Virus record (IMG/VR): IMGVR_UViG_3300013126_000016
Location: 23,015-87,014 of that record
DNA length: 64,000 bases
Origin: a virus
Reading direction: 5' to 3' (one strand)
Below the pieces are notes generated by a model. It was not told the DNA's origin, searched no databases, and worked only from the letters and a program-made list of their open reading frames with translations. Positions 1-59,095 of this stretch are shown here, in pieces. Numbering within the stretch: position 1 is the first letter of the stretch; each line of letters starts with the position of its first letter. Position numbers and translations under genes: made by a program.

Positions 1-69
1 GAGATAGAGGAAATAGAAGAGTTAATAAAGGAGATAGATTTCAAGAAGTTATTAAGTTTTTTGAGGTAG
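1..69 (+). CDS. 3' end of an upstream ORF (partial, ...EIEELIKEIDFKKLLSFLR*)
   Basis: Frame 1 is open from the window edge to TAG at 67-69; this TAG is part of the GC palindrome at 64-83. Confidence 0.45.
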   Translation, partial: EIEEIEELIKEIDFKKLLSFLR

Positions 70-83
70 CCGCGCGGCTACCT
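64..83. repeat. Dispersed GC palindrome, perfect 20-bp copy AGGTAGCCGCGCGGCTACCT
   Basis: Read directly; fully self-complementary. Followed by a T-rich tract, so it could also act as a terminator hairpin. Confidence 0.95.
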
Positions 84-123
84 TTATCTTATTTTTAGTT
101 CTATACTATCCATAAAACTATTT

Positions 124-840
124 ATGCCTCCTGATAACTTACTAGATTTCCTAGAATCTAAAGACAAAATCCAAACCATTCAATCCGATACCTCCAAGAT
201 TATCCGCAAGGAAAATAACATTACTACTGAAGAATATATCTCCCTCTTTATTAACCTTATTATTTTTGTTACTCTTGTTATTAAAGTTATTCAACCACTT
301 ACAGATATTCTTAAACCTTTAAAAATTAAATTAACTAAAAAATACTTTAAAGAAATAAACTTTATTGAAGACCTTTTAGAAGAATTACTATTACTCACTA
401 AAGCTGATAGAGTATGCGTGGGTGTATTTCATAATGGTCAAGTTTGGGGTCACTTTCATTTTATGAAAATGACTATAGCTTATGAAGCTTGTAAGTATGG
501 TATAACTTCTATAAAAAAGTTATATGCAAACGTTCCTCTAGAAAAGATAAAAAACCAACTACAGGTAGTAGAGGAGGATAAGTTTTCAATATTTAATAGG
601 GATGATGATTTAGAACCAGAGTGTATAAAATACCTAGACAGCCAAAACTTAAAAGGTACATTATCTAGGCTCATAACTAATAAAAAAGGGGAAGTAATCG
701 CTATATTAGAGGCTCAAAGACTCTATGATTATTTTGGTAGCGAAGACTTGTCTGATAGCCGTTTAGAGCCTACTTTCAATAGGCTAATACACAATCTTTC
801 TCTAATAAATGAAGGTAAAGAGTTACCTATAGATAATTAA
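124..840 (+). CDS. Membrane-anchored protein with GAF-like domain, possible holin
   Basis: One hydrophobic segment (YISLFINLIIFVTLVIKVI) followed by L..L..ADRV.V..FHNG, a GAF-like start. TM plus GAF is the T4 holin T architecture; the holin call is inference. Confidence 0.4.
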   Translation: MPPDNLLDFLESKDKIQTIQSDTSKIIRKENNITTEEYISLFINLIIFVTLVIKVIQPLTDILKPLKIKLTKKYFKEINFIEDLLEELLLLTKADRVCVGVFHNGQVWGHFHFMKMTIAYEACKYGITSIKKLYANVPLEKIKNQLQVVEEDKFSIFNRDDDLEPECIKYLDSQNLKGTLSRLITNKKGEVIAILEAQRLYDYFGSEDLSDSRLEPTFNRLIHNLSLINEGKELPIDN

Positions 841-873
841 AACAGTGGCAAACTAAGAAATTTAAGATATAAT

Positions 874-2118: not shown

Positions 2119-2190
2119 GACTAACAACATTCCCGGGCTGCTAGATTAAGCAATAATATCAATAGAAATTAGATCTTTAATAAGTTCTAA

Positions 2191-2226
2191 TAGATTTTTT
2201 TTGTTTAATTAAACAAAAAAAATCTA
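2191..2226. repeat. Perfect 36-bp AT-rich palindrome TAGA-T8-GTTTAATTAAAC-A8-TCTA
   Basis: Read directly; fully self-complementary with no spacer. Confidence 0.95.
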
Positions 2227-2326
2227 CAAATAAATATTTATATAAGAGGCTCAAAACCGCGCTTAAAGAGTTTTTTTAGATTTTAGAGAGCAAACTATAG
2301 TTTTATATTATTTTGTTTTTTTAGTT

Positions 2327-3784
2327 ATGAAAAGAGTAAAATATAAGCCTGCTTATAAAGTTAACGAACTGTTCGTTGGAGAAGGGACGGCAATAGTAAT
2401 TACAGGGTGGACACCAAAAGACAGAATAAAAAGGGAACTAGAAAAAGAAGGAATAAAGTATGCAGCAATAGGAAACTTATACTCCCCAAATTATGGACTA
2501 ACGTATTTAGCAGCTAATCTATTAGCTAATCCCTACGATTGGGATATTTGCCTATTAGGAGGTACAAGAGCCGATTTATTTAGCAATGGTATAGAAGCTG
2601 TAAAAGGGATGCTAGAAGGCAAAATAAAGGGGGATAGAGTATTTAACACAAAGGGAGAACAAGTAGGCAGAATAGATAATATATTTGAGGAAGAACAGAT
2701 AAAGTTATTACAAGAGAAGTTAGCCGCGCGGCTGACTTACCATACATCTATAAAAGATTTAATAAAATACTTAAAAGAGATTAATAAAGATAAGAGAGAA
2801 TTAGAGCAATATGCAGAACCTATAATAAAAGAGATACCTATAATAAAGAGTAAAACCAGGTCAGGCAATACTAACAGTCCTAGAATAGAAGGAAAGACTG
2901 TAGAAGAGGTGTGGATAAAGATATTACATCTTATAAGAACAAATGGTCTATTAACTAATTCTCAATATGGTCAAAGGCAAGAGATAATAAGTTTAAGTGT
3001 TACTATAACAGAACAACCAAAACTTGATTGTCTAGAAATAAAAGAGTGGATGCCTATATCCTATGATTCTTTAAAAGAGTATATACCAAGTTTTTGTTAC
3101 AGTAAGCATAGTGAAGAGACTGAGTATACTTACAGCAATCGTATAAGAAACTTAGAAGGGGTAGACCAAATAGAAAGAATAGTAGATAAATTAATAGCAG
3201 ACCCCAATTCAACTCAATTATATATAAGTTTATGGGATACTTATAAAGACATTTACAATAGTAACCCACCTTGTTTAGTGAGTATATGGGTAAGGTTAAT
3301 AGATAATAAGTTATTACTAGAAGGGAGTTTCAGGTCACAAGATATGTTTACAGCGTACATACCAAACGTTGTAGGGTTAAGAGAGATTCAAAGTATTCTA
3401 GTAAATAAAATAATAGACAAAGGATTATTAGTAGAAGAAGGTGTATTAATAACAAATTCAAAGTCAGCACATTTATACGAGAATGCTTTTAGAGAAGCTG
3501 ACGAGATAATAAGTAAGGAATATAAATATAAGAAAGTGTTAGAACCAAAGGATAGAGTAGGAAATTTTGTGATAGAAGTAGAGGAGCGCGGGGCTACCTT
3601 ACTAAAAATAAAACAACTAACGCCTACAGGAATCCCTATTTCTTTGTATGAAGGAGAAGAACCCTTTAAGTTACTAGTGGAAATAATAAACCAAAATCCC
3701 ACTATAGAAAAACAACATATAGCTTACTTAGGTACAGAACTACAAAAAGCTACTTTATTAAAAAATCAGTACAAGCAAGGTTGA
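2327..3784 (+). CDS. thyA: Thymidylate synthase, cyanobacterial three-domain type (MtrA-like N-terminus, ThyA core, DUF4346-like C-terminus)
   Basis: Catalytic PPCL; FRSQDMF..YIPN with Asn at the dUMP-specificity position; SAHLYE. N-terminal IGNLYSP..GL...ANLLANP and C-terminal HIAYLGTELQKA..Y.Q. Confidence 0.85.
   Translation: MKRVKYKPAYKVNELFVGEGTAIVITGWTPKDRIKRELEKEGIKYAAIGNLYSPNYGLTYLAANLLANPYDWDICLLGGTRADLFSNGIEAVKGMLEGKIKGDRVFNTKGEQVGRIDNIFEEEQIKLLQEKLAARLTYHTSIKDLIKYLKEINKDKRELEQYAEPIIKEIPIIKSKTRSGNTNSPRIEGKTVEEVWIKILHLIRTNGLLTNSQYGQRQEIISLSVTITEQPKLDCLEIKEWMPISYDSLKEYIPSFCYSKHSEETEYTYSNRIRNLEGVDQIERIVDKLIADPNSTQLYISLWDTYKDIYNSNPPCLVSIWVRLIDNKLLLEGSFRSQDMFTAYIPNVVGLREIQSILVNKIIDKGLLVEEGVLITNSKSAHLYENAFREADEIISKEYKYKKVLEPKDRVGNFVIEVEERGATLLKIKQLTPTGIPISLYEGEEPFKLLVEIINQNPTIEKQHIAYLGTELQKATLLKNQYKQG
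2717..2738. repeat. Dispersed GC palindrome copy AAGTTAGCCGCGCGGCTGACTT inside thyA
   Basis: Exact core AGCCGCGCGGCT at 2722-2733; 22 bp with one mismatch; read in frame as KLAARLT. Confidence 0.9.
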
Positions 3785-3808
3785 CAAAGCATAGAAAAAA
3801 AGTAGAGT
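3781..3808 (+). promoter_or_regulatory. Candidate sigma70-type promoter upstream of primase
   Basis: TTGACA (3781-3786), 16-bp spacer, TAGAGT (3803-3808), at the start of a 220-bp intergenic gap. Confidence 0.45.
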
Positions 3809-4006
3809 ATATAAATCTCAAGGTTAATCATCTGCCAAGTTACTCCGAGTAAACTCAACCTGCCAATTTTCATATATCAGAAAACTAAAATGTACAAGAG
3901 CTGTGCTGAAAAGCGCGGCTCTTTTCTTAATAATTTTCTTAAAGTCCATCTACTAAGGATTAAGTTTTTAAAAGCTACTATATCCACTTCACTATAATGT
4001 ACTTTT

Positions 4007-5227
4007 ATGGAAATACAACAGTTAAAAGAATGCTTAAGAATAAGTAAAGTATCAGAGATATTTGAGATAGGAATAACAAATAAGGAGACAAACCAAAGGT
4101 GTCCTTTTTGTGGAGGAAGTAATTCGTTAAAAGTATATAGTGACGTATGGTTTAAGTGTTTTAAATGTGGGAGTAGAGGAGATATAATAAACTTATTGCA
4201 AGTGGCAGGTAAGGCTAATAGTTTCCGGGAGGCTGTGTTAAAATTAAGTAATTTAGTAGACACAACGAAAGAAACTAGAGAATACCGAATAAGATTAACA
4301 GGTATGGAAGCCACTTACAAAAGTTATAGAACTCATAAGAAGAGGAAACAAGGTGCAGAGTATTTAGAGAGTAGAGGATGGAAAAAGGCAATAGATAGAG
4401 GAGATTACGGATATTCTGACGCTCCAGATTTGTTGCAAAGTAAGGGACATACAAAAGAGGAGTTAGAAAATCTAGGGTTAATGTTGACTAAAGAAAGGGA
4501 GCTATATGATAATCATGTAGTATTTCCGGTCAGGACTGCAAATGGAAAGTTAGTGCATGTACAGGGAAGGAATACCGACCCGGCGGCTAACTTAAGATGG
4601 TTAGCAGATAAAGGACAACCCCCTATAAACAACTACTTATACAACCTAGAAAATCTAAATAAGTCCACTAACTACGTTGTTATAGTAGAAGGTATTTCTG
4701 ACGCATTAAGTCTTTTAGAACTAGACGAGCCAACAGTAGGTACTTTTGGAATTAACTTTTCTCTTCTTAGACACATTCCCTCTTTTAAGAATTTAACTCA
4801 TATATTAGCTATCTTTGATAGAGACAAGTATAGTATAGGTACGCCTTTACAAGGAAGATATAAAAGCTGGACACAAGTAGTGCCCGAGTTATGTAAACTT
4901 AGTATTGAGTTAAAGATACCGATATACACTTGGATGGTACCAGACATAAGTGGAGTTAAAGATTTAAATGATTTACTGATAGAAGTAGATTATGACGAAG
5001 GGGCATACAAAGATTTATTAGTAAAAACAGTAATGCCTCTAGAAAGAATGTGCTTAGAAATTATACAAATAACAGAGGATAAAGAACTTTATTGGTTATT
5101 GTGGGAACTTCATAGAGAACTAAAAAATACAAAAGAAGAAAAACTTTTAGAAGATCATGTTAATACAAAATATGGTTCTCTAAAAGAACACTTTAAATGG
5201 ATTGTTAGTTCATCTATGGAGTTTTAA
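4007..5227 (+). CDS. dnaG: DnaG-type DNA primase (zinc finger plus TOPRIM)
   Basis: CPFC...FKCFKCG.RGDII zinc-binding domain; YLESRG; VFPV; VIVEGISDALSL; IFDRD; KDLND. Confidence 0.9.
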   Translation: MEIQQLKECLRISKVSEIFEIGITNKETNQRCPFCGGSNSLKVYSDVWFKCFKCGSRGDIINLLQVAGKANSFREAVLKLSNLVDTTKETREYRIRLTGMEATYKSYRTHKKRKQGAEYLESRGWKKAIDRGDYGYSDAPDLLQSKGHTKEELENLGLMLTKERELYDNHVVFPVRTANGKLVHVQGRNTDPAANLRWLADKGQPPINNYLYNLENLNKSTNYVVIVEGISDALSLLELDEPTVGTFGINFSLLRHIPSFKNLTHILAIFDRDKYSIGTPLQGRYKSWTQVVPELCKLSIELKIPIYTWMVPDISGVKDLNDLLIEVDYDEGAYKDLLVKTVMPLERMCLEIIQITEDKELYWLLWELHRELKNTKEEKLLEDHVNTKYGSLKEHFKWIVSSSMEF

Positions 5228-5229: not shown

Positions 5230-6042
5230 ATGGAGTGTAATAGAGTTAGTTTTTATGTAGGTATAACTTCTAACAGAAACATAGTATGTGGTTGTGTAGT
5301 AATAGTAGTAAAATGGATGGATGAAGAAGAGATAATTGTAGTGTTTCCAGACGAAATAAATAGTAGAGGCTGGAATAGGGTAATTCTACCTAAGATAGAG
5401 TATGTAGTAGCTAGAGAGCAAAGGAGGTTAAAATTAAAAGACAAAGAAATAGAAATAGTAATACCAAACATTTACATTTCTTATAGTTCTATTTATAGAA
5501 CAAGGTATAGCAGATTTAATAGTATAACAAAGGAAGCAGATAAACTAGCAGAACAAAAACGCCTATGGTTACTAGACACAGTTTACGCTGATTCTTACCC
5601 TATATATAAGTTAAGGGATAATCTAGGCAAACTGGATATAGATCTTGCACTGACTATCTTAGATAAAGGAATAACTAGCATATTTATAGTTAAAAGGTTA
5701 TCTAAAATAGGATTTTACTATGAAGAAGCATTAAAAAGATTAGACAAAAGGGTATTATTTACAGACTATACAGGTAGTAACACACCTGCATGGTGGTTAG
5801 AAGAATTTGAAGGAAGAAGATTTTGTAACGATACAGGAGTAATAGAAGGGGGATATTTACCAATAAGATTTAGAAGATGGGCAAGGAACATGGGAATAAA
5901 GATATTAGGAATAAAAAAGGAGAAGTATAGTAATCCAGAGTCAATAGAAGAAGAGCACTTATTAACACAAGGAGAAAGGTATGAACAAAGAAGAAGAAAA
6001 AGAAGGAAAAGAAGAGCAGCAGAAAGAGGAAGTAGAAGATAG
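5230..6042 (+). CDS. Hypothetical protein, possibly a degenerate RNase HII fold
   Basis: AEQKR..LD..YPIY.L.DNLG echoes the RNase HII motif AKV.RD..YP.Y.F..NKGY. The N-terminal strand pattern is similar but lacks the catalytic DE. Confidence 0.4.
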   Translation: MECNRVSFYVGITSNRNIVCGCVVIVVKWMDEEEIIVVFPDEINSRGWNRVILPKIEYVVAREQRRLKLKDKEIEIVIPNIYISYSSIYRTRYSRFNSITKEADKLAEQKRLWLLDTVYADSYPIYKLRDNLGKLDIDLALTILDKGITSIFIVKRLSKIGFYYEEALKRLDKRVLFTDYTGSNTPAWWLEEFEGRRFCNDTGVIEGGYLPIRFRRWARNMGIKILGIKKEKYSNPESIEEEHLLTQGERYEQRRRKRRKRRAAERGSRR

Positions 6043-6056
6043 CGGCGCGGCTACCT
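6040..6056. repeat. Dispersed GC palindrome copy TAGCGGCGCGGCTACCT (one mismatch)
   Basis: Read directly; it begins on the TAG stop codon of ORF 5230..6042. Confidence 0.85.
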
Positions 6057-6089
6057 ACTTACTATATTTTATTTCAAGCAACATTAACT

Positions 6090-9758: not shown

Positions 9759-9768
9759 GGTAGTAGAA

Positions 9769-9780
9769 AGCCGCGCGGCT
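9769..9780. repeat. Dispersed GC palindrome core AGCCGCGCGGCT (intergenic)
   Basis: Exact core shortly after the stop of 9006..9758 and upstream of nrdB. Confidence 0.9.
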
Positions 9781-9870
9781 ACGTTAATAAATAAGTTAAT
9801 AAATTTTTTACTTATAGAAGATACTATAAGAGTTAAATTAAAAGAAGTCGCGCAAATAATAAGAAAAAAT

Positions 9871-12793: not shown

Positions 12794-13249
12794 ATGATAG
12801 AAGATATAAGTAAATATAAAGACTTAATAGTAGAGTTATACAAGCTGCAAGCTAATACTTTTGTGCTTTATTTAAAGAGTTGGGGAGCGCATTGGAATGT
12901 AGAAGGAATAAACTTTATAGAATTGCATGAGTTATTCAAAGAGGTGTATGAGGGGTTAGAAGAAGAAATAGATAGGATAGCCGAAGGGATAGGCTCATTA
13001 GGGTATAAAGCGCCGGCTAACTTAGAGTTATATATAAAGTTATCTCAGCTAAAAGAATTTAAAGGAAGTGAGAGTTATGATATACTACTCAGTTCTTTAT
13101 TATCAGACTTATTAGAAATAGAAAGTTTGTTATTAAACTGTAATAAAGAAGCTGTAAAAGTAGAATGTGAGGCTATACTTAATATGCTACAAGATATAAT
13201 AGAGCAAAATAGGGTGTATATATACAAACTGAGAAGGACTGTTAAATGA
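12794..13249 (+). CDS. dps: Dps family ferritin-like DNA-protection protein
   Basis: HWNVEG.NF.ELHELF.E.Y...EEIDRIAE ferroxidase signature; 151 aa. Confidence 0.93.
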   Translation: MIEDISKYKDLIVELYKLQANTFVLYLKSWGAHWNVEGINFIELHELFKEVYEGLEEEIDRIAEGIGSLGYKAPANLELYIKLSQLKEFKGSESYDILLSSLLSDLLEIESLLLNCNKEAVKVECEAILNMLQDIIEQNRVYIYKLRRTVK

Positions 13250-51400: not shown

Positions 51401-52038
51401 ATAAGAGCAATAAAATAACCTTCAACAGGAAGTAGTACGCTTTGGATTTCTAAAGTTAGAGATGAAAGAGGAGTTCCAGAGCTTTGGGAATGAAGTAGAC
51501 GTTCAGAATTAGTTAGATTAGGGCTACCCTGAACAGATTTAGTAACGAAGAAGTTATAGCGGCCGGCTACATTATTGTTGAGAGTAAGATAGTCAGTAAA
51601 AGTTTTTACAGGAGCATAAATAGGGTTAGTAATGATAGCATCGCCTATATAATTTAGGTCTACCTTCAAACCAATAGTTCTGTTACCAGAATCAGGGGGA
51701 GTTAAATCATTACCACTTAAAACCCTACCGATTTTAGGAGCAATATTATCATTACCACTAGTAGAAGATAAAGAAATAGAAGCAGGGTTTGAACTAGCAG
51801 AAGCGCGGCATACAGTAAAGTTACTTAAACCATTAGTAAATGCTTGTTGAGCAAATAAACTTCCAGGGCTAGAATCTAAGCCATAAACACTAGCAAAAGT
51901 TTTTATATCAGTTATATCGGTAGGAATATCAGGTCCTCTATTAAAGATACTTACGATTCCTACTTTATCTCTCCAAGATTTAATAATAGGAGTTGGACCT
52001 ACTATACTGTCAATAAATGTAATATTTGGTCTAGTCAT
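48472..52038 (-). CDS. Contractile tail sheath protein (1188 aa)
   Basis: RGP..PT.I....F...YG; ALTPG.HGN.I; C-terminal SVVRTLD.V, PNTPELR..V, CSEANNT..DQLEGRLNIRIRFTP.FPAD. Confidence 0.92.
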   Translation of the reverse strand: MTRPNITFIDSIVGPTPIIKSWRDKVGIVSIFNRGPDIPTDITDIKTFASVYGLDSSPGSLFAQQAFTNGLSNFTVCRASASSNPASISLSSTSGNDNIAPKIGRVLSGNDLTPPDSGNRTIGLKVDLNYIGDAIITNPIYAPVKTFTDYLTLNNNVAGRYNFFVTKSVQGSPNLTNSERLLHSQSSGTPLSSLTLEIQSVLLPVEGYFIALINKTANNYSTLKKFLIPGYCLININATGTEVLDESDTSDLIICSEPYSYSPTHDALLIKTSRLHPFAVRGVALTNSSNKKQLVVSRMQDVKSDSDTNGNYPPLGNAPAASHVDRLKNMKLVIGEKEYSQSSDPANYSSTVSFINTTSVEIDNQDPVSFNELYSESINSIDYLNATIGTATTFQFATDLPFVANSTPVYFIPSVIASDTTNKTITIRGVYNRDELAGIIGNANQRNSVYFIINNVKYTPTGGVTVPTETTNIDEITITVNETLSVAAENGVYIYVRPNSSLQGYPYTENYQIAIPKTAHYIMGYRFDSLSGSVANDEYKIPQLYNDGFSNVALDGVFLLSEYSGGRYFSFGYFKKPSYEPSDDAFPLSIESFGIKYWLGEESSTQLALTEHGSFAIPFAKTSLLAGSTTEGSGAFTAGQDLGSVFNTLDLAIKSDSIASALISNTNIEDFLTLNSTVISTPTISLTSSYSGEQANRIRITLQRYQVGTANDFTIKGFNWVSNTISGYFKGGYNGATYAYRDLYSVDGELLWRIQALTPGVHGNSINCSITKQSSQSKYASFQIIVKDTNLNSISSDSSNQMYVDSNNIDFTTGRSLAFSSTSLVQAFFMPVIKALRSNITIDSTNRLFSLPVQRLAPPLEKYSKSFGNGDTSFSAQGYSVFSSFYLKNGSETSLANPDKKSLATGMIKAIKQLDALNINCLVLPGIVYGDPDFQEVFNVAKLSTETCTAESGLRTAVFELSPGITPERARFLADEINSERIVLLAGTQIMRSATGTLVSSVGSSGSYVGYDLSRSPNLSPAASFSNNLVQGVNSVDTQSSPSYLDRMSSAGVEVLMFDSNMGGFRFCNGLTTSRNVAKRYRSVVRTLDQVKTDLYLALQWVRSRPNTPELRSEVSSACDTYLFSKLRDGWFTNLDPTICSEANNTVRDQLEGRLNIRIRFTPSFPADRLFVSTIMDITEDFSLQTSL

Positions 52039-52060: not shown

Positions 52061-53170
52061 TTAGAAAGTTCCACCATCTATGTTAAAGTTATCTTCTATA
52101 ACTTTTATTTCTTTAGTAATATTTTGCACAACAGGTTTAGTTTTACTAGGTAAAGATAAAGTGTCTATATCGACACTTCCCTGTAAATTTAGATTAAAAG
52201 TAGATGAGTCTTTTTGTTGAAGAGCTTCTGTAGTAAGATTAATCTCATTAATATTAGGGAAAAGAAAAGTATCTTCTGGGAAGGGTTCATATACATCATA
52301 ACTTACTACACAGTATGAAGTATGAAAAATTAGATTTTTAGATTCCCTTATCCAATTAGACGTTGGGTAATCTACAGAAGTAATATGAGGGTTACGAAGA
52401 GCAAAGGGTCGTATATATATTAAAGAACGAATAACTTTAGTTAATAAAGACATCCAAGAGCGGAGTATACGTTCACCAGGTAGAGTAGTAATAGAAATAA
52501 GTGAATTAGAAGAACCTAATTTAGATTCTTTAGTAGTAGGTTGTTCAGTAGTGTGGATGAATTTAGGAGGATTAAGTTTAGTAGTTTGAGGTATAACGTA
52601 ATCTTCAGGAACTAATGAAGGAGTGCGCTCTTCTAACAATTGAGCTAAAGTGCGGGTATTAGGGGAGAGATTGCGGTCTTTGTATTGAAAGGAGTCCGCG
52701 CGGCTAATAGTTAATGGATAAAAATTAGGATAATTACTATCAAGGTTTACTATATCCGCCGCTATTTCTACCGGAAGATTATAAGAAGCATCTTGATAGA
52801 ATAACTGAACTACAAAATTAAAAGTATTTTTAACTGCATAAGAGTTAGAATTAGGTCTACCTAAATATTTATCATCGTACACAACAGATTTATGACTAAG
52901 TCTAGTGCTAAGTTGAGCCGAGGTTTGGTCATAATTATCGTGGAAAGGATAAACAGCAAGAGTAAGACCTGGTTCTACAAGTTCTACCCCACCGAAGTCC
53001 CTAGCACTTGTGATACGTATTGGGTCAATCGGAGTAGATTCTCCTAAGATTACCGGGTAATATATTTCACTATTTTGTATATCTGGATGCTGTAAAATAG
53101 CACATAATAAAGCATTAACTGCTTGATCATGTGTAGGAAATATATTATCTAAGGGAATCTGCTGGGCCAT
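52061..53170 (-). CDS. Probable neck or tail completion protein
   Basis: Position between head genes and sheath; no diagnostic motif. Confidence 0.5.
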   Translation of the reverse strand: MAQQIPLDNIFPTHDQAVNALLCAILQHPDIQNSEIYYPVILGESTPIDPIRITSARDFGGVELVEPGLTLAVYPFHDNYDQTSAQLSTRLSHKSVVYDDKYLGRPNSNSYAVKNTFNFVVQLFYQDASYNLPVEIAADIVNLDSNYPNFYPLTISRADSFQYKDRNLSPNTRTLAQLLEERTPSLVPEDYVIPQTTKLNPPKFIHTTEQPTTKESKLGSSNSLISITTLPGERILRSWMSLLTKVIRSLIYIRPFALRNPHITSVDYPTSNWIRESKNLIFHTSYCVVSYDVYEPFPEDTFLFPNINEINLTTEALQQKDSSTFNLNLQGSVDIDTLSLPSKTKPVVQNITKEIKVIEDNFNIDGGTF

Positions 53171-54801
53171 ATAGAGGGATTATTAAGCTGGTTTACTTGG
53201 TCTTCTATATTTTGTAGTATAGGACTTCTTCTAGGAGTAGAGGAAATAAGTGGAGGTTGAGTATAAGAAGAATTAGTAAGGAGAGCACCTCCCGGAATAG
53301 TCTTGGCAAATACTCTAATAGATTTAGGATTATTACTGTAAGAACTTTGTGCACTCATAAGGTCTCCTGTGGCTATTTCTAGGTCTTCTGGTATCTCTAA
53401 AATATCTAATATTACATAAGTATTAAATCTAGATATAGTCCACGCTACTAGCTCTATAGCAGCCTCTGGTACAGCAAAATCTGTAGGGTCATTTTTAATG
53501 ATAGCCGCCGACATACCTGAATAATTACGAGTAATAGTAATCTCTTTTAAGATAGCCGCCGCTGCTTGTGAATGCCTAGAATTGTCTAACTCTAATTGTT
53601 TACTATTACTAGTAATTCTATTAAACTCTATTTCTGTAAAATCAGTAGTAGGATCTATCTCAGTAGGAGACCAGAACTGCACTCTAATTTTTATTTTAGA
53701 AGTCCCTACAGGAGTAGTTCCTCCAGTTACCCATTTAGCTTTATTTCTAATATACAATACAACTGGTTGCCCAGCATTATCATCTGTAGTGTTAATAGTA
53801 CTAGCTTTATTATTCTTTAAAAGGATAACTAAACCATTAACACTGTTAGTAGTTAAAGAATTAATGTAAGTACCCCATTTAAAAGGGCTTGTGTTAGTAG
53901 ATATGCCGTTATCTTTAAGGTCTACTTTTAAGTTTAAGGAATAGGCTAATACACCTGGCATATTAGTCCTAGGGTAAAAGCTTAGTAAGTGTACTTGGGA
54001 GTAAAACTGATTTGCAAAACCTGAAAGTTGAGGCGCGGCTACTAACCCCTCATTTTCGTAGCGTACGCTTATGCTATTAATAGAATCTGCAAAATCAGAA
54101 ACTATTTGTGCAGCAGTTACTACTGTACCCGCAGCATAGGTTTTAGAAATAATCCAAGTATTTAAAAGGTGGGAAGCGTACCAACTACATTCTAAAGTTT
54201 GAGAAGCAGATAGAGTAATAGAACTAGAATTAAAGATAAAGCCGGAGTCAAAAGTTTCTTCAGATTCAGAAGAAGTAGATTGACTAGCAGACATCTCGTA
54301 GGTAGTACAGATTCTGTCTAAGTCTTTAAGAGCTTGGTCTTCGAGAACTTTAGCATGTTCTGCTTGTTCAGGGACTTGAGCTAGTTGTCCTATTAAAACA
54401 GAAGCGGTTAAAGAAGCAGAAACTCTGCGGATACCATCAGAGAAAAGAGTTTGATTGAGCTGACCAGAAGAATTAGGTCTATCAGGGTCAGCAAACATAA
54501 CTTCGCGGACATGACCTAATCCTTGAAAAAGGAAAGTATTATCTTTTCTTTTAGCAGCGGCTAAGATAAGCGCGATGCGAGGGTCTGCTTCGTTAGTAAT
54601 TATTTTAAATATTTCTAGAGCAGTTCGCCGGCGCAGTAGAACTGACGCACGGCGAACCATTTCAACCATTTTAAATAAAGGCAATCTAGTTATAATTTGC
54701 TCTTCCGTTAAGTTTTCAGCTTGTTCTTCTGTAGTAGAAGGGTCTATACCGCCTGATTGAGGGTAACTAAATCTATCTCTGAAATTTAACGTAACAGCCA
54801 T
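53149..54801 (-). CDS. Probable head-tail connector or neck protein
   Basis: Position; helical N-terminus with ...QALKDLDRI, recalling Mu gp36-like adaptors. Confidence 0.5.
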   Translation of the reverse strand: MAVTLNFRDRFSYPQSGGIDPSTTEEQAENLTEEQIITRLPLFKMVEMVRRASVLLRRRTALEIFKIITNEADPRIALILAAAKRKDNTFLFQGLGHVREVMFADPDRPNSSGQLNQTLFSDGIRRVSASLTASVLIGQLAQVPEQAEHAKVLEDQALKDLDRICTTYEMSASQSTSSESEETFDSGFIFNSSSITLSASQTLECSWYASHLLNTWIISKTYAAGTVVTAAQIVSDFADSINSISVRYENEGLVAAPQLSGFANQFYSQVHLLSFYPRTNMPGVLAYSLNLKVDLKDNGISTNTSPFKWGTYINSLTTNSVNGLVILLKNNKASTINTTDDNAGQPVVLYIRNKAKWVTGGTTPVGTSKIKIRVQFWSPTEIDPTTDFTEIEFNRITSNSKQLELDNSRHSQAAAAILKEITITRNYSGMSAAIIKNDPTDFAVPEAAIELVAWTISRFNTYVILDILEIPEDLEIATGDLMSAQSSYSNNPKSIRVFAKTIPGGALLTNSSYTQPPLISSTPRRSPILQNIEDQVNQLNNPSIWPSRFP

Positions 54802-55322: not shown

Positions 55323-56111
55323 CTAAGGGTTTTTGTTTTGGTTAACTACTACTAATTCTCCGGAAGCCAAAGTAGGAGTAGCTCCGCTGTAAGTTAATAC
55401 CAAAGTAGCTAAATGTAAAGAAGCACAATCACGAATTAAAGATAAAGAATTAGAGTTAGTGTAAGGAGGGTAAACACCACTAACATAAACAAGTTGTTCT
55501 GCTTCATTAACTTTAAAGTTCCCGGCGGCTAACTTAGAAGAGGTTTGATTACCCCAACCACGATTGTTACCTTTTTGAGAAGGAACAATAGGATTCTCAA
55601 AAATAGGATCGGCTAAAGACCAAGCACCGCTAACTCTTTTATAGAATTTAGAAGTTTGTAAATACTCATCCATGTCAAAACACTCAATTGCCCAATCATC
55701 ATTAGCAACTGCATCCCCATTTAATAAAGTCGTTGGTGCAGAACTTCCTTTTATATAGGGTAAAACTCGTCTTGAAGGATTAGCAATTATGTAATAGTAA
55801 TAAGTACCAGCAGAAGTAACAGTAGAACCACCAGAGTGTAAAGTGGTAGTAGGAGTAATAGTTAAAGTAACAGAGGAGCTTAGAGTAGCTAACTGACTAT
55901 CTAAATAAGCTGAACCCACAGCTATTGTTACTGTACTAGCTACAGAAGTAGCAGAACTAGCAGCTGCAATAGTAGCAGAAGGTGTTAGACCAGAATAAAC
56001 AGAAGAATAAGGATAATAGGAAAGACCGACACCTCTAGATTCAGGATATAAGTCTTTTAGAAAACGAAAGCCAGGTGCTACCTGTTGTGGAATTGGAGTT
56101 GAACTAGCCAT
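55323..56111 (-). CDS. Probable capsid decoration or structural protein
   Basis: Immediately after the major capsid gene; Ser/Thr/Ala-rich beta-type sequence. Confidence 0.55.
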   Translation of the reverse strand: MASSTPIPQQVAPGFRFLKDLYPESRGVGLSYYPYSSVYSGLTPSATIAAASSATSVASTVTIAVGSAYLDSQLATLSSSVTLTITPTTTLHSGGSTVTSAGTYYYYIIANPSRRVLPYIKGSSAPTTLLNGDAVANDDWAIECFDMDEYLQTSKFYKRVSGAWSLADPIFENPIVPSQKGNNRGWGNQTSSKLAAGNFKVNEAEQLVYVSGVYPPYTNSNSLSLIRDCASLHLATLVLTYSGATPTLASGELVVVNQNKNP

Positions 56112-56180: not shown

Positions 56181-56186
56181 GTACAA

Positions 56187-57503
56187 CTAGAAAGTACCGT
56201 AAGCCAAGTTAGATTGGATAATGAACTTATTAGATAGCTCACCTTCGTCACAAACATCCAGAATAGAAATCCAGTGAGGATAAATAACAACAGGTAGGAA
56301 AGCATCACCCATTTGCATAACGCGTCCTGGAGGTGCTGGAGGCTCGCTCATAGCCGAAGTACGAACAAAGATACCTGGGTTACCATTTGGAGATTCACCG
56401 CTACAATGATAAGTAAACCCTAAAGTAGCACTAGGATTATCAATAGCGTTACGAGCTACTAAGGCTACTTTATGAGCAGGCCAGTAAGTTTTAATTTTGT
56501 TATCTACTGGATCTCTGTACATACCATCTACTGCTGTGATACGCAAACCAGCAATAGAAGTAATTTCTCCGCCTGGGCCCATAGTAATATAAGTAGCGGG
56601 TGCCCCACCTGTGCTAGTTACAATATTTGCGTTACCAGCTACTGTGCTAGTAGGAGCGTTATAAACAAGAACACCAGGTACATTACTTAAAGATTTGATA
56701 TACTCGTTTTCCATTAAGATAGTGAGTAAATCAGTTGAAATAATAATGTCTGTAAAAGTGTTTTTATTAGTTTTTCGTAAATATTCTTTTAAGAGACGTA
56801 AGCCGTAGATAATATCAGCTTTAGGATCTGTCCAAGCTACTCCAGCACGTTGGTCAGTAGACTTAAACATTAAAGCTTCTTTACGACCTTTATTGTTTGC
56901 CAAAGCTTTAGCAGCAGTAAATCCAGTACCCGATACATTAGCTCCGGCTGTAACACTACTATCAAACCCATCGTATCTAAAATTGTTATGAACAGGAATG
57001 TTAGAGGAAACATTAATGCTAACACCTGTACGTGGGTCAGTGTAGTTAATACCACCTAATAGAGCTTTAGTAATAAAGAGGTCTTTAGTACGAGCGTGAC
57101 GGGCGACTAATTGTTGTACACGGCGTTGAACAATATCTTCTGGACGGTAAGCTTGGTTAAAAGTACCAGGCTGACGGAGTTGGTTAATGAGGTGTTGTTC
57201 AATAAAGTCATCTTCACGAACTACTGCGGGGCGAGCAGTGAATGCACGAATTCTATTTTGTTCTAAGAAACCACCGCTAGGTACACCAAATCGAACGATA
57301 GGCATAATACCTAAACCTTCGATGATTTGTTCTACAACGATAGTACGTTCAGGGATGTTGCGGTCGGGGAAAAACTCACCTAAAGGAGTTCTAGCAATCT
57401 GATAAAACGATTGCGCTAACATAGTTAGCTGTAGTGACCCTAATTGATACTCTTCCCCTATAAACTGATAGGGACTAGTACCTGCTTGAAATTCAATAGC
57501 CAT
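56187..57503 (-). CDS. Major capsid protein (phage cap E-like, HK97 fold)
   Basis: FFPD; PIVR.G; AL.GG.I.Y; W.DP.ADI; C-terminal FLPVV.YP. Follows the protease gene. Confidence 0.9.
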   Translation of the reverse strand: MAIEFQAGTSPYQFIGEEYQLGSLQLTMLAQSFYQIARTPLGEFFPDRNIPERTIVVEQIIEGLGIMPIVRFGVPSGGFLEQNRIRAFTARPAVVREDDFIEQHLINQLRQPGTFNQAYRPEDIVQRRVQQLVARHARTKDLFITKALLGGINYTDPRTGVSINVSSNIPVHNNFRYDGFDSSVTAGANVSGTGFTAAKALANNKGRKEALMFKSTDQRAGVAWTDPKADIIYGLRLLKEYLRKTNKNTFTDIIISTDLLTILMENEYIKSLSNVPGVLVYNAPTSTVAGNANIVTSTGGAPATYITMGPGGEITSIAGLRITAVDGMYRDPVDNKIKTYWPAHKVALVARNAIDNPSATLGFTYHCSGESPNGNPGIFVRTSAMSEPPAPPGRVMQMGDAFLPVVIYPHWISILDVCDEGELSNKFIIQSNLAYGTF

Positions 57504-57548
57504 ATTACTTCCTATAATTATTTATAAATATTTTTAAACTTATTAAAA

Positions 57549-58574
57549 TTAGATTCGTTTACCTTTAGTCATCTCAGCAAAAACGCGTTGGTTTTCTTTG
57601 ATGATATCTAAATAAGGATTAGGAATCTCTTCTGCTGGAGAGTTAGAAACTGGTTCAGAAGAACCTTGAACTTCCGAGAATTTTTGATGGTTTTCAGAGG
57701 ATAGTTCTGATAAACGAAGAAATTGAGCCTCGCGTTGTTCTTTAGACAAAGAGGGTAATAGGTCTGAAAACACGCGTTTTGTATCAGAAGAAATATTAAG
57801 GGATTGTACTTTTTCTAATAGAGAAGCAGTTGTTTGAGCTTCTATAACAGATTGAGCTTCTTTTAGTTGAGTTTCAGTCAGTTGTAGTTTTTGAGTCAAG
57901 TCTTCTACTTTTAAAGCCAAATCAGCGATTTGCTGAGCAACTTTATCAGAGAAAGCAACTGGGGTTTCAATAGGAGTATCCATAATAGTAGGTTCAGTCA
58001 TTGGAGGTTTATTAAAATCAAATAAAAAAGAAACAGATTTACCTTCTTCAGATTCTGAAAAGGTTTGGTGGACAGCTTGTACTCTAGGAAGCCCAGTAAG
58101 AAAAGGTCTATTAGTTAAAGCTGCACCTCTTAATACAGTACCTATAGATTCCCCAGTAGTTTTACTTTTAGCATTACGATAAAACTCCCCACTGGAATAT
58201 CTATAAGCGCCATCTTTAACGGTATTAAACACTTTATCATTTACAGGGTCAAAAAGACCAAATAAGGTATTATTATCTTGATAAAGGTCTTTTAAAAAAG
58301 CTACGGAAGGGGCTCCTTCTATAGAATCAGAGTCTGTAGGATGACCTGTGAATAGGGGGGGTTCGTAGCCAGTAGCTTTATCAGACCAGTTTTTTAAGAT
58401 ATCGTCAAAGTCTTTTTGCTTAAAAGAAACGTCCCCGTACTCAGGATGCACCCAATTACCTAAAACTGCTATAGGCACTTTGAGGTATTTAGTGTCTTCG
58501 CTATATAGTTCAGCAGATAAATTATATTTAGGTTCGATTGTTATAAGATTATTCATAGTTAGTCTATAGTACAA
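57549..58574 (-). CDS. Mu-like prohead protease with C-terminal scaffold
   Basis: G.W.HP.YG; GH; YRYSSGEF; LRGAALTNRPFL.GL; coiled-coil C-terminus. The start may be the second Met. Confidence 0.88.
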   Translation of the reverse strand: MYYRLTMNNLITIEPKYNLSAELYSEDTKYLKVPIAVLGNWVHPEYGDVSFKQKDFDDILKNWSDKATGYEPPLFTGHPTDSDSIEGAPSVAFLKDLYQDNNTLFGLFDPVNDKVFNTVKDGAYRYSSGEFYRNAKSKTTGESIGTVLRGAALTNRPFLTGLPRVQAVHQTFSESEEGKSVSFLFDFNKPPMTEPTIMDTPIETPVAFSDKVAQQIADLALKVEDLTQKLQLTETQLKEAQSVIEAQTTASLLEKVQSLNISSDTKRVFSDLLPSLSKEQREAQFLRLSELSSENHQKFSEVQGSSEPVSNSPAEEIPNPYLDIIKENQRVFAEMTKGKRI

Positions 58575-59095
58575 CCTTCAAGGGAGCCGTGTTTAAGCTT
58601 ATAGAGTTGTTTATATTTTTGATTAATATAAATAGCAGTAGCTTCTTTTAGTTCAAATTGTGGGCAGGATTCAACAGCTTCAGAATACAATTCTAGGTCT
58701 AAAGAAGGCTGGGGCTGGGGAGGCTCTGGAGGCTGTTCTGAGAGAGTTTCTGAGGAATCAGAGGGGAGGAGGGAAGAGGGAGGTGTATGGGAGTCACAGT
58801 AATAGACTGAGATAACACAGCAATCCCACTTAGAGCAATGAGCTTCTTGAGTAACAGGATTATAAGTAGAGAAAGCGCAATTACAGCAGCAATTAGCTAA
58901 ACGGTAGTTAGGGATGCAGCTTTGGGATTCCAAAATAGATTCTGGGGATTGGTATGGGTTATAAGAGGAATAGTCTGATAGTTTTAAGGTAGCCGCGCGG
59001 CTATCTTTAGTTTTATCAGGTTCTACCTCTGTAGTAGCTTCTGTCTTACCTAAGTCAGCACTTATTAAACTTTCTATTAATTCATTATCATTCAT
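58559..59095 (-). CDS. Cys-rich protein, possible HiPIP-like metal cluster domain
   Basis: PNYR..CCCNCAF-x10-CSKWDCC..V.YCD. Confidence 0.55.
   Translation of the reverse strand: MNDNELIESLISADLGKTEATTEVEPDKTKDSRAATLKLSDYSSYNPYQSPESILESQSCIPNYRLANCCCNCAFSTYNPVTQEAHCSKWDCCVISVYYCDSHTPPSSLLPSDSSETLSEQPPEPPQPQPSLDLELYSEAVESCPQFELKEATAIYINQKYKQLYKLKHGSLEGCTID
58986..59007. repeat. Dispersed GC palindrome copy AAGGTAGCCGCGCGGCTATCTT inside a CDS
   Basis: Exact 14-bp TAGCCGCGCGGCTA; 22 bp with one mismatch; read as DSRAATL on the - strand. Confidence 0.95.

Follow-up and report, generated by a model that had tools for sequence, protein, structure and literature searches.

A lake phage (IMG/VR record IMGVR_UViG_3300013126_000016, 87,014 bp; here G000) and its close relatives carry one GC-rich word that recurs about every 1.5 kb. 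What is repeated is an oriented word: 6-10 nt of pure G/C ending in GGC, then TA(C/A)(C/T)TT. Two such words back to back form an 18-28-bp palindrome. The word would have two uses, as a terminator where paired and as a DNA-level signal whether single or paired, an account that, taken as a whole, we give an even chance of being right. Positions below are those of the window, the whole 64,000-nt stretch analysed, which is part of the record; the analysis covers ~59% of the genome, ~41% being missing by CheckV estimate.

The 12-mer AGCCGCGCGGCT, which a sequence-only reading had placed at 68, 2722, 9769, 32358 and 58991, was recovered at all five positions and occurs nine times in the whole record; none of 100 dinucleotide shuffles contains it. 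The 17 degenerate or half copies named there are likewise present in 17 of 17 cases, and unrelated genes do share identical half-sites (CCCGGCGGCTAACTTA at 4579 and 55521; CGCCGGCTAACTT at 13011 and 20913). The proposed density of about one copy per 3 kb was too low, as the 87 kb hold 60 oriented words with a G/C run of at least 6, nearer one per 1.5 kb.

Partial copies within genes lie 10- to 40-fold above a synonymous-codon null. Under 300 synonymous shuffles, the codon-preserving null that had been set as a refutation test, the motif enrichment survives: GCGCGGCT occurs in CDSs 7 times in sense and 4 times in antisense (0.20 and 0.06 expected), and GGCTAMCTT 6 and 4 times (0.52 and 0.21 expected). 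In coding DNA, GCGCGGCT, CCGCGCGG and CGCGGCTA come first in an unbiased k-mer scan, and the window holds 19 SSSSSGGCTA where shuffles give 0.42. Most long GC runs do belong to the motif family, as had been suspected, with 19 of 26 coding G/C-only runs of at least 9 nt bounded by TAGC or GCTA (0.57 expected). TA follows 62 of the 158 G/C runs of at least 7 nt; 56 of those 62 end in GC, hence CTA.

Palindromic copies and transcription termination

Copies had been described on stop codons, between genes and within CDSs, and all three occur, but the strong ones cluster at gene ends: 12 of the 17 near-full copies (at most 6 mismatches to the 22-mer) lie between genes or at a gene end, with ~94% of the genome coding. 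Palindromes and two-sided copies are listed here, without a strand where none is assigned.

63..84, + strand: full palindrome GAGGTAGCCGCGCGGCTACCTT in the intergenic stretch upstream of gene 124-840; resembles a terminator, its stem of 9 pairs closing on a loop of 4 and leading into the T-rich tail TATCTTATTT, with 9 T in the next 12 nt on + and 3 on the opposite strand
2717..2738: near-full palindrome AAGTTAGCCGCGCGGCTGACTT in CDS 2327-3784 (thymidylate-synthase-like); folds at -12.8 kcal/mol, z -3.2, with one T.G pair on the + strand
3896..3923, + strand: imperfect hairpin AAGAGCTGTGC-TGAA-AAGCGCGGCTCTT with T tail, between genes 2327-3784 and 4007-5227; 12 pairs (G-T allowed), two T.G on the + strand; its 3' arm is the half copy earlier noted at 3913
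6036..6057, + strand: degenerate palindrome AAGATAGCGGCGCGGCTACCTA; overlaps the stop codon of gene 5230-6042 and has a weak stem
9764..9785, + strand: exact-12-mer copy, 6 nt past the stop of gene 9006-9758; left arm decayed
18202..18226: imperfect palindrome GGGTAGCTGCGCGGCGGCTGCCCTT within giant ORF 15478-31269; fold z -1.8
32353..32374, - strand: full palindrome (- strand AAGGTAGCCGCGCGGCTACCCTTTTTTCTG) between 32414-33229(-) and 31290-32288(-); putative terminator for the - strand operon; position conserved in G002, G003 and G004
42364..42392: two-sided variant AAGTTAGCCCGGCGGCCGCTAAAAT in CDS 41791-42906; G000-specific, G002 equal in length
51551..51575: two-sided variant TATAGCGGCCGGCTACATT in sheath-like gene 48472-52038; common to G002
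58986..59007: near-full palindrome AAGGTAGCCGCGCGGCTATCTT within CDS 58559-59095(-); codes for ..KDSRAATLK.. of a variable linker; only the + strand has the T-rich tail

Terminators had been set aside as an explanation, and wrongly so. With a T tract on the gene strand at 7 of the 7 best intergenic copies, the palindromic copies look like intrinsic terminators in full anatomy and position. A family hairpin stands at ten gene ends, and a consensus terminator scan of the genome at 3.5-20 kb returned 19 sites against 8.9 +/- 3.1 in shuffles; the nine strongest include six family members, each of them on the gene strand. An alignment of 16 copies from 6 genomes shows an invariant stem core (TAGCC/GGCTA) and a freely varying 4-nt loop (GCGC, GACC, TGCC, ACAA); the outer stem covaries, with 13 double-change cells against 6.1 +/- 1.7, a value reached in 0 of 500 shuffles. 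At 32353 both the position and the exact 12-mer are kept in relatives of only 68-82% nucleotide identity.

We suggest that a palindrome placed a few bases past a stop codon, with the T tract next on the gene's strand, would fold in the RNA as a GC-rich hairpin and act as a factor-independent terminator. Such terminators would bracket the early and accessory genes that run in one direction, and their TAGCC/GGCTA stem core is held constant across the clade. Counting against this terminator layer are five near-full copies inside genes, including those at 2717 and 58986, where a terminator would be harmful, and the 58986 copy has its T tail and G.T pair on the antisense strand.

Single words within genes

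Single words within genes do not fold, 16 of 20 intragenic sites folding no better than shuffles. Each line below is a single word, except for the primase gene.

3586..3602, + strand: GCGCGGGGC-TACCTTAC, within CDS 2327-3784
4007..5227, + strand: DnaG-type primase gene (CHC2 zinc ribbon and DnaG catalytic core N-terminal domain)
4579..4595, + strand: CCCGGCGGC-TAACTTAA, within the primase gene; 16-mer identical to the 55521 copy
7457..7471, + strand: GCGCGGC-TAATTATA, within CDS 7099-8232 (PD-(D/E)XK nuclease)
13010..13025, + strand: GCGCCGGC-TAACTTAG, within CDS 12794-13249 (ferritin-like)
13703..13717, + strand: GCGCGGC-TACAATTA, close to the end of CDS 13246-13737
14787..14801, + strand: CGCGGGC-TAAATTAT, antisense, integrase gene 13903-15381
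16726..16741, + strand: CGCGCCGC-TAAATATA, antisense, giant ORF 15478-31269
20913..20927, + strand: CGCCGGC-TAACTTTC, antisense, same giant ORF; 13-mer common to the 13011 copy
22542..22559, + strand: CGCCGCCCGC-TAATGTTA, antisense, same giant ORF
24713..24727, + strand: GCGGCGC-TAAATGCT, antisense, same giant ORF
26622..26638, - strand: + strand AGGTAGCGGCGCGG; G000-specific, G002 orthologue AT-rich and equal in length
31958..31975, - strand: + strand AAGGTAGCCGCGCCGG, within CDS 31290-32288; common to G002
38262..38279, - strand: + strand AAGTAGCGGGCGCGG, CDS 37772-38860; G000-specific
50330..50346, - strand: + strand ATAGCGGCCGCC, sheath-like gene 48472-52038
52696..52712, + strand: CCGCGCGGC-TAATAGTT, antisense, CDS 52061-53170; in G002, not in G003 or G004
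52756..52770, + strand: CCGCCGC-TATTTCTA, antisense, CDS 52061-53170; not in G002 (CCCCTGC, equal length)
53496..53510, - strand: + strand ATGATAGCCGCCG, CDS 53149-54801; not in G002 (TAGCTGCTG, equal length)
53547..53562, - strand: + strand AAGATAGCCGCCGC; G002 has TAACCGCC, one substitution apart
54032..54047, + strand: GGCGCGGC-TACTAACC; G002 has GGAGCAGCTAC, two AT-to-GC substitutions apart
55521..55537, + strand: CCCGGCGGC-TAACTTAG, antisense, CDS 55323-56111; G002 has ACCAGAAGCTAACTT, four clustered AT-to-GC changes apart; G003 and G004 AT-rich there
59787..59801, + strand: GCGGGGC-TAGTTTTT, antisense, portal-like gene 59705-61132

Orthologue alignment, proposed earlier as a way to tell substitution from insertion, came down on the side of substitution. 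Within aligned blocks, none of the 14 G000 sites and none of the 9 G002 sites shows a length change, a difference of zero at all 23 comparable sites, and words were gained separately in each lineage. Single words arose through clustered AT-to-GC substitutions, never insertion; these point changes write them into genes in both orientations and irrespective of frame.

Strand composition around the words

Every word, single or paired, marks a sharp step in G-versus-C skew, present at 55 of the 60 oriented words. On the strand of the word, some 250 nt 5' of it are rich in G, and the 3' flank is neutral to C-rich. Across the 17 near-full copies the profile runs from +0.33 to -0.32, and right minus left is -0.40 (negative at 16 of 17); 53 gene ends that carry no hairpin show no step. 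The step at 25 deep-intragenic single words is -0.33 (null sd 0.056) and is negative at 21 of them; sense and antisense words behave alike, gene direction being irrelevant. Longer runs have a larger step (+0.02 for runs of 2-3, -0.49 for runs of at least 8), and the step is strongest at silent codon positions, which points to a strand-specific DNA transaction anchored at the word; GC3 skew is +0.46 upstream of the word against -0.08 downstream. The step is replicated in G002 (14/15), G003 (43/60), G004 (32/50) and L128 (8/10); distant relatives and the unrelated phage G001 do not show it. The GCTA-bounded word with its skew step is specific to this phage clade.

The idea of a phage-specific DNA-level signal therefore stands as regards a word that is above chance, frame-independent and clade-specific, with a silent-site step that ignores the direction of transcription; it was at fault in dismissing terminators. 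What is shown of that signal is a pattern, and which transaction reads the word, whether priming, nicking or recombination, we infer. Orthologous places in G002 that have no word still show the step (negative at 10 of 11; mean -0.17 vs -0.26), so the compositional context may precede the word rather than being caused by it, although flanks that are 80-94% identical leave little time for a step to decay. The bias raises G but not T, unlike the usual signature of cytosine deamination in single strands, and we know of no polymerase bias shown to yield it.

Candidate readers and rival explanations

The skew switch at single words hints at a fixed start point of some DNA-copying or repair step. Our preferred reading, a tentative one that we regard as possible rather than probable, has the G/C run and the adjoining CTA serve as a strong start site for the zinc-ribbon DnaG-type primase that the phage itself encodes (gene 4007-5227), a candidate reader of the word. 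CTA is a canonical DnaG initiation triplet. With CTA on the template at the 3' edge of the run, a primer starting pppAG would copy the run (e.g., AGCCGCGCGGC) and would pair firmly in a 34%-GC genome, and DNA synthesis from it would span exactly the flank that carries the bias. DnaG enzymes are described in part of PMC2978363 as initiating at the middle base of CTA, TTA or CTG; passages of PMC6783573 give E. coli chromosomal primers as 10-12 nt and have hairpins positioning primase at the phage G4 origin. Same-strand words are spaced at a median of 1.7-1.9 kb, and from window position -1981 to 24713 stand 11 consecutive single words in one orientation, right of an ORF-free region of 43-nt repeats where the large-scale GC skew changes sign. 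Word orientation follows the broad GC skew at only 25 of 38 words in G000 (p 0.07), which is not replicated in G002 (7/12), G003 (17/44) or G004 (14/35), so the prediction of a lagging-strand template fails outside the left 45 kb of G000. The three-base CTA match could be coincidence.

It is unlikely, in our view, that the family comprises ordinary intrinsic terminators only, spread with gene cassettes, the intragenic half-words being functionless echoes. These would come from short-patch gene conversion, out of terminators and into places already sharing the arm GCTA(A/C)CTT, and the skew step would be a property of places where echoes can arise. The arm does pre-exist where a relative has no G/C run (G002 reads AGAAGCTAACTT and GCAGCTAC), several substitutions cluster within 9 nt, identical 13-16-mers sit in unrelated genes, the half-words do not fold, and the step occurs at orthologous places that have no word. 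However, the 16-mer CCCGGCGGCTAACTTA is without a terminator donor within the 87-kb record, words are retained at orthologous sites in G000 and G002, the step scales with word strength and reaches 55 of 60 words, and conversion alone leaves the invariant TAGCC/GGCTA and the free loop unexplained. We give hardly any credence to a tiny mobile GC cluster (MITE-like or of the yeast-mitochondrial type) or a host-derived uptake or REP sequence, although GC-rich palindromes dispersed in an AT-rich genome may call mobile GC clusters to mind. Insertion of such a cluster is contradicted by the zero length difference at 23 of 23 G000/G002 sites, and there are no target duplications. As for a host origin, none of the 401 cyanobacterial genomes sampled holds the word above control level, and among the GTDB species-genome matches listed all are single hits except three contigs of one Ktedonobacteraceae MAG, the only genome hit more than once, with different flanks.

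A recombination-initiating site, with the word or palindrome nicked, cut or read Chi-like by a nuclease-helicase, seems improbable to us. Known Chi words are much shorter than 13-16 informative bases, promoter-like sites beside the hairpins are not above shuffles, and the relatives' contigs do not include the left arm that a comparison of cassettes would need. Such a site would nonetheless account for an oriented word with an abrupt step and one-sided decay over ~250 nt, since one-sided repair or exchange would leave a compositional gradient; RuvC-like and PD-(D/E)XK nuclease genes lie nearby, and the palindromes bracket co-directional accessory genes, as if cassettes were exchanged there in the manner of the PeSLs of T4-like phages, presented in part of PMC4122927 as terminator/promoter stem-loops that serve as exchange points. 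Very unlikely, we consider, is an iterated palindrome of HIP1 type, or generic G/C micro-islands, with repair tied to methylation or context-dependent mutation as the driver. HIP1 is a short palindrome with random flanks, whereas here an oriented word of 13-16 nt, its GCTA boundary fixed, carries the information, which reaches into the arms, so the analogy drawn earlier fits only loosely; CCGCGCGG is absent from the alternate HIPs in section 2.3 of PMC4390886. Methylation, also put forward, is not supported, with no PF00145 or PF01555 methyltransferase in the ~59% of the G000 genome covered. The excess of long G/C runs in G000 is almost wholly TAGC- or GCTA-bounded (34 observed vs 2.98 expected; 29 vs 19.4 for the others), which argues against a generic micro-island habit, and in the unrelated 208-kb phage G001 only 141 of 1670 G/C runs are followed by TA, with no skew step. 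What speaks for it is the origin through substitution, the mild enrichment of G/C-rich hexamers in G000 coding DNA, the 57 CCGCGCGG and 324 GCGCGG counted on both strands of G001, and the enrichment of HIP1 itself in the relative L025.

The word and the genome that carries it

We regard as real a clade-specific two-layer system in this phage, in which a conserved palindrome of terminator type is assembled from an oriented word that has its own footprint at the DNA level. The word is a G/C run ending in GGC followed by TA(C/A)(C/T)TT, and the palindrome is a pair of such words back to back, with 17 places lying within 6 mismatches of AAGGTAGCCGCGCGGCTACCTT (the near-full copies). The sequence-only reading had reported the 12-mer AGCCGCGCGGCT at five positions along with a series of degenerate copies; the 12-mer is present at all five, with none arising in 100 shuffles, every degenerate copy was found at its place, and the whole record, G000, holds nine copies of the 12-mer. 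The description of the family as highly iterated also holds against a codon-preserving null of 300 synonymous-codon shuffles that keep protein and codon usage: coding DNA contains GCGCGGCT 11 times against 0.26 expected, GGCTAMCTT 10 times against 0.73 and GCGCGG 23 times against 2.65, and family words head the ranking when all 6- and 8-mers are scanned without bias. Pure G/C runs at least 7 nt long number 63 where 22.4 are expected, and nearly all of the excess lies in runs bounded by TAGC/GCTA (34 versus 2.98; other runs, 29 versus 19.4). A TA follows 62 of the 158 G/C runs of 7 or more, and 56 of these 62 end in GC, giving CTA. Aligned at this GC/TA edge, the bounded runs yield the consensus sssGCGGC followed by TA(A/C/T)(C/T)TT within genes and GGTAGCCGCGCGGC followed by TACCTT between genes. 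In G000 the sequence around GCGCGG carries strong information as far as GTAGCC / CTACCTTT, unlike that in G001, an unrelated phage, and words on the same strand have a median spacing of 1.7-1.9 kb.

The record (87,014 bp, 34% GC; the window is bases 23015-87014) is a fragment with a CheckV completeness of 59%; ORFs leave the contig outward at both ends (genome 1-3687, minus strand; window 62435-64000, plus strand), and no terminal repeat was found at its ends. Its gene content is that of a myovirus-like phage, with genes for replication and nucleotide metabolism in the left arm.

Principal features of G000 (window coordinates)
56187-57503: major head protein match
48472-52038: sheath-like protein match
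59705-61132: portal match
33267-35057: large terminase match
13903-15381: serine integrase match
15478-31269, minus strand: single ORF of 5263 aa, with six family words within it
4007-5227, left arm: DnaG-type primase
left arm: RuvC-like nuclease and PD-(D/E)XK nuclease
left arm: thymidylate-synthase-like protein, and both subunits of ribonucleotide reductase

Residues 303-2418 of the 5263-aa product align to the relative G003 at 30% identity. Between the head protein and its counterparts in Microcystis and Microcoleus phages identity is 28-32%, relatives in IMG/VR reach 54-94% identity, and a fraction of 0.91 of the words sampled from a 9.9-kb stretch of G000 is present in a freshwater metagenome run from another study. 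About 94% of G000 is coding in our own ORF set. At genome 4000-12000 long plus-strand ORFs, for example 7661-10351 (896 aa), lie on the strand rich in C and in pyrimidines (GC skew -0.21 to -0.30, purine 0.42-0.45), while at window 1-14000 plus-strand ORFs lie on the G-rich, purine-rich strand (+0.16 to +0.39); strand composition in these two regions is independent of transcription.

Five of the near-full copies lie inside genes. One of them, at 58986, encodes KDSRAATLK in a variable linker; its gene keeps a conserved N-terminus in G003 and G004. ORFs contain 38 oriented words whose run is at least 7 nt long (17 sense, 21 antisense), and at 16 of 20 intragenic places examined the sense RNA folds no more stably than shuffles (z -0.65 to +1.54), so RNA structure was rejected as an explanation of these 16 half-words. 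Alignment of G000 with its close relative G002 (21.8 kb, mean identity 76%) indicates that the words arise by substitution. Site 55521 reads CCCGGCGGCTAACTT in G000 and ACCAGAAGCTAACTT in G002, with G003 and G004 likewise AT-rich; site 54032 reads GGCGCGGCTAC against GGAGCAGCTAC, and site 53555 TAGCCGCC against TAACCGCC. The length difference at family sites in aligned blocks is zero in 14 of 14 cases for G000 and 9 of 9 for G002, which rules out insertion of a mobile mini-element; a mobile GC cluster or MITE-like element was rejected because the length change expected of it is missing at all 23 sites. By our own reading of the site table the two genomes agree at four sites, with differences in G000 at ten and in G002 at five, so that words turn over in both lineages, and the overall differences between the two genomes are balanced (1660 W-to-S, 1595 S-to-W). 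The half-word is of interest as a cluster of silent-site changes within genes that is kept or regained across separate lineages.

Palindromic copies at gene ends

Twelve of the 17 near-full copies lie between genes or across a gene end, usually 6-15 nt past the stop codon, and ten gene ends carry a family hairpin with a folding energy of -6 to -33 kcal/mol. A terminator scan of genome 3.5-20 kb returned 19 sites against 8.9 +/- 3.1 in shuffles, with the family supplying six of the nine strongest, on the gene strand; the same scan recovered 63-84 and 3896-3923 within the window. The latter bears on a supposed half copy at 3913, which has the sequence attributed to it and is not a half copy, being the 3' arm of the hairpin 3896-3923, which is maintained by two T.G pairs. 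All seven of the best intergenic copies, including that at 32353, have a T-rich tail on the strand of the flanking gene (6-9 T in 12 nt, versus 2-5 on the other strand). The palindrome at 32353 serves a minus-strand operon, and the intragenic copy at 58986 has its T tail in antisense and hence lacks the T tract of a terminator for its gene.

In a gapless alignment of 16 copies from G000, G002, G003, G004 and two further carriers, G005 and L128, TAGCC and GGCTA are invariant, the central four bases vary in 3 of the 16, and the outer stem covaries (AAGG/CCTT, AGGG/CCCT, ACAG/CTGT) with 86% of cells paired; double-change cells number 13 against 6.1 +/- 1.7, a value matched in none of 500 shuffles. 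The copy at 32353 keeps its position and its exact 12-mer in G002, G003 and G004, although the surrounding DNA is only 68-82% identical. A search of the window and left arm against Rfam gave no family matches. Judged from sequence, the paired copies are probably terminators. They resemble Rho-independent terminators in having a GC-rich stem of 8-14 pairs, a 4-nt loop and a T tract, 6-15 nt past the stop, and differ from ordinary ones in three respects: more than 12 share the invariant core TAGCC/GGCTA across genomes of 68% identity, their half-sequences also occur inside coding DNA, and each copy sits at a step in DNA strand composition. Were the palindromes only terminators, an uncultured freshwater myovirus would have provided a neat example of a terminator family conserved in sequence. 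Next to the palindrome at 32353-32374, with no gap, lies a perfect (TAAC) x 9.5 microsatellite (window 32374-32411).

Strand composition around the word

A further property of the word is a local change in GC skew, which we express as the skew on its right minus that on its left. Over 200 nt on each side of the 17 near-full copies the step averages -0.40 and is negative at 16 (single-site null sd 0.26), the mean profile falling from +0.33 just left to -0.32 just right and fading over 250-350 nt. Gene ends without a hairpin (n=53) show no comparable step. Flank complementarity does not exceed shuffles at 16 of the 17 copies, and an extended inverted repeat was therefore rejected as the cause. 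The step is also present well away from gene ends: at 25 one-sided words, each 150 nt or more within a gene and read in the run-then-TA direction, upstream skew is +0.24 to +0.29 and downstream skew about -0.05, giving a step of -0.33 (null sd 0.056; negative at 21 of 25) that is found for sense (-0.25) and antisense (-0.39) words. The skew step is independent of gene ends and of whether the word is sense or antisense. It is largest at third codon positions, where GC3 skew is +0.46 upstream versus -0.08 downstream; G counts there are 246 upstream and 124 downstream and C counts 90 and 145, with A/T skew unchanged. Upstream flanks are rich in GGGA, GGAG and GAGG and downstream flanks in CTCT and TCCT. 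Cytosine deamination of exposed single strands is an unlikely cause, because T is not enriched.

The step deepens with the length of the G/C run, and arms without such a run show a weak one (-0.14). It recurs in the carriers of the word tabulated below and is absent both in the distant relatives L017, L019, L020, L023 and L024 and in G001.

Skew step by length of G/C run
2-3: +0.02
4: -0.07
5: -0.09
6-7: -0.26
8 or more: -0.49

Skew step at oriented words, by genome
G000: negative at 55 of 60, z -11.9
G002: negative at 14 of 15, z -4.2
G003: negative at 43 of 60, z -5.9
G004: negative at 32 of 50, z -4.0
L128: negative at 8 of 10, z -2.5

At 11 words found in G000 only, the wordless orthologous places in G002 also step (negative at 10 of 11, mean -0.17 versus -0.26), so that the compositional context may precede the word, although flanks 80-94% identical make this a weak test. 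From the direction and placement of the step we infer a site-anchored, direction-dependent and strand-specific DNA transaction at the word, which would act on, or be favoured by, its 5' flank, and on balance it seems somewhat probable that a DNA-level process is tied to the word. To our knowledge a skew step at iterated words is apparently undescribed, our literature search having been aimed at other points. Words of this kind can be located in other genomes through local skew steps.

Possible readers, precedents and hosts

The reading we prefer for the process at the word is priming by the phage's own primase, which we put forward tentatively and consider doubtful. A phage DnaG-type primase would favour a long GC-rich start word, composed of the G/C run, CTA and a short arm. 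A primer begun at CTA would copy the 9-10-nt G/C run and so form a firm hybrid in an AT-rich genome, and synthesis from it would cover the 5' flank, where the bias sits. Start words every ~1.5-2 kb would hard-wire lagging- or complementary-strand synthesis, and at gene ends the start word would be doubled into a palindrome that also terminates transcription. With fixed starts, the first ~250 nt of each fragment might be made or re-made by a different enzyme, and the two together could produce a G/C-skew sawtooth at silent sites. We know of no long GC-rich, genome-wide 'strong site' of a primase with a mutational footprint. Were the reading true, a genome-wide map of priming sites would be legible from sequence alone.

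Several features of the phage are consistent with priming. The product of 4007-5227 scores above the Pfam cut-offs for Zn_ribbon_DnaG (E 6e-7) and DNAG_N (E 1e-6), so that the phage encodes its own zinc-ribbon primase; the only relative of this primase that IMG/VR yielded (L190, 37% identity) belongs to a distant relative lacking the word. According to Larson et al. 2010 (PMC2978363), DnaG-type primases initiate at the middle base of CTA, TTA or CTG, the third base being cryptic and primers beginning pppAG, and here such a triplet (CTA, 56 of the 62 runs before TA) borders the would-be template on its 3' side. Naue et al. 2019 (PMC6783573) give a primer length of 10-12 nt for E. coli chromosomal replication and describe hairpins next to a CTG, at the origin of phage G4, that allow primase to work with SSB alone. 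The word resembles DnaG sites and the G4 origin in having CTA at the 3' edge of a copied stretch of primer length (10-11 nt), and the G4 complementary-strand origin in having a hairpin that adjoins the start triplet; known primase sites are bare triplets, whereas here there is a long GC-rich word across the genome. In B. subtilis the error-prone DnaE extends primers ahead of hand-off (PMC3664799), which offers one route from fixed start sites to a footprint.

Against priming stand the nature of the skew, which is not of the deamination type, the step already present at wordless G002 places, and the orientation of the words, which would be expected to favour the lagging-strand template. Orientation agrees with broad skew at 25 of 38 words in G000 (p 0.07), replication direction itself being inferred from skew, and this is not replicated in G002 (7 of 12), G003 (17 of 44) or G004 (14 of 35). 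Among the rivals, each weighed as the principal explanation of single words and skew step, nick- or Chi-like initiation of recombination at the word would fit the one-sided gradient about as well as priming does. Passive gene conversion from terminators into genes would account for the clusters of substitutions, but leaves the invariant core and the dose-dependent step unexplained. For work at the bench the word offers three handles, namely a fixed CTA edge, a candidate reader in the phage primase and a measurable footprint.

Also in line with priming are the same-strand spacing given above and eleven consecutive single words, from window -1981 to 24713, which are co-oriented and lie to the right of an ORF-free stretch where large-scale skew switches sign (-0.25 at 4-12 kb, +0.3 at 24-37 kb). 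This stretch of 1.4 kb (genome 18007-19431) holds a 43-nt repeat (4.4 copies, 93% matches; genome 18210-18398 = L149:1211-1399, 4.6-4.8 kb left of the window) and is flanked by family hairpins at 18022 and 19385. It is a candidate replication origin, with the repeats as iterons, or a candidate repeat RNA.

Iterated words such as HIP1 have remained unexplained for 30 years. The DNA uptake sequences of Neisseria and Haemophilus are oriented 9-12-nt words that point mutation has spread through genes and that act as terminators behind genes when paired in inverted order; their carriers are the chromosomes of competent bacteria, whose uptake machinery reads them, whereas the present word belongs to a phage clade and no word-bearing host genome was found. 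HIP1 (GCGATCGC) and the alternate HIPs of cyanobacteria (Elhai 2015, PMC4390886; Xu et al. 2018, PMC5861425) resemble the present family as dispersed GC-rich palindromes in coding and non-coding DNA and in all frames, and likewise arise by point substitution. The phage word is not among the alternate HIPs listed in section 2.3 of PMC4390886 (GGGATCCC, TCGATCGA, GGCGCC, rCCGGy, GCsGC), and the supplementary tables of that paper may list more. Compared with HIP1, an 8-mer, the word is an oriented 13-16-nt unit with a fixed GCTA edge, its carrier is a phage clade and it occurs in no sampled host chromosome, its palindromic copies are concentrated at gene ends, and no cognate methyltransferase was found. 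Its information is not confined to ~8 nt within variable flanks, and PF00145 and PF01555 methyltransferases were not found in G000 (59% complete), G002, G003 or G004. PeSLs, conserved stem-loops of T4-like phages that combine promoter and terminator, are reportedly the subject of Arbiol et al. 2010 (PMC2839356). They are similar as repeated conserved stem-loops between small accessory genes in a large myovirus (Comeau et al. 2014, PMC4122927); by contrast, no adjoining promoter consensus was detected in G000, and the part of that paper available to us reports neither half-copies in genes nor skew-step marking for PeSLs. Sigma-70-like sites in G000 number 49 versus 48.4 and 47 versus 49.5 in shuffles, for a consensus that may not be that of the phage or its host. 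The contigs of G002, G003 and G004 lie outside the accessory arm.

A compositional parallel is G001 (IMGVR_UViG_3300005330_000014; L159-L169), a 208-kb phage of 35% GC whose proteins show no detectable homology to those of G000. It too is AT-rich and favours the core CCGCGCGG, with 57 copies and 324 of GCGCGG on both strands, and its flanks are uninformative. A TA follows 141 of its 1670 G/C-only runs of 7 or more (both strands; 8%, versus 32-39% in the G000 clade). In the absence there of both a GCTA boundary and a skew step, the shared core is a resemblance and not the same system. G001 encodes an N6_N4 methyltransferase at 166727-167863.

Searches for a host in several collections identified none. 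A capsid-profile scan of GTDB species genomes gave no prophage relative, and the at least 120 matches to the 16-mer in these genomes were, among the matches listed, single, chance-like and in GC-rich genomes. In 401 sampled cyanobacterial genomes, which are part of one phylum, the 12-mer was never clearly above control (maximum 7, where the same genome's control gave 14). The Ktedonobacteraceae MAG GZL_FP_2_bin.97 (G007; L058, L079, L096) has 19 copies of GCCGCGCGGC against a control of 0 in 6.6 Mb, and was rejected as host, the copies lying on hairpins with other flanks and three of them carrying GTAGCCGCGCGGCTAC at the tips of longer hairpins. A cyanobacterial genome, G402 (L170-L189; 4.4 Mb, 55% GC), has 170 copies of CCGCGCGG and none of the reversed word GGCGCGCC; it was likewise rejected, being HIP1-rich, with a CCGCGCGG count near its base-composition expectation and a control word that is simply avoided. 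The counts suggest strong avoidance of GGCGCGCC, perhaps as a restriction site. HIP1 occurs 1044 times on both strands in the 400 kb of G402 read. Word enrichment is absent from the genomes to which L128, L107, L117 and L081 belong. L128 itself (NBNH01000163.1, 9.5 kb, 37% GC), filed under the 'Actinomycetales bacterium mxb001' MAG, encodes proteins 46-58% identical to those of G000 genes at genome 3807-5113 and shares the hairpins; most likely this is a contig of a phage related to G000 that was binned wrongly, and it was rejected as host sequence. Arms of the form GTAGC..GCTAC around other centres in distant relatives were dropped as a lead, GTAGC being only ~2-fold over expectation and AGCTGCAGCT resembling an Ala-codon repeat. 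L025 (IMGVR_UViG_3300044640_001993), a relative with 68% head-protein identity, contains HIP1 12 times on both strands in 21 kb, ~51 times expectation, which hints at a cyanobacterial host for its branch of the family.
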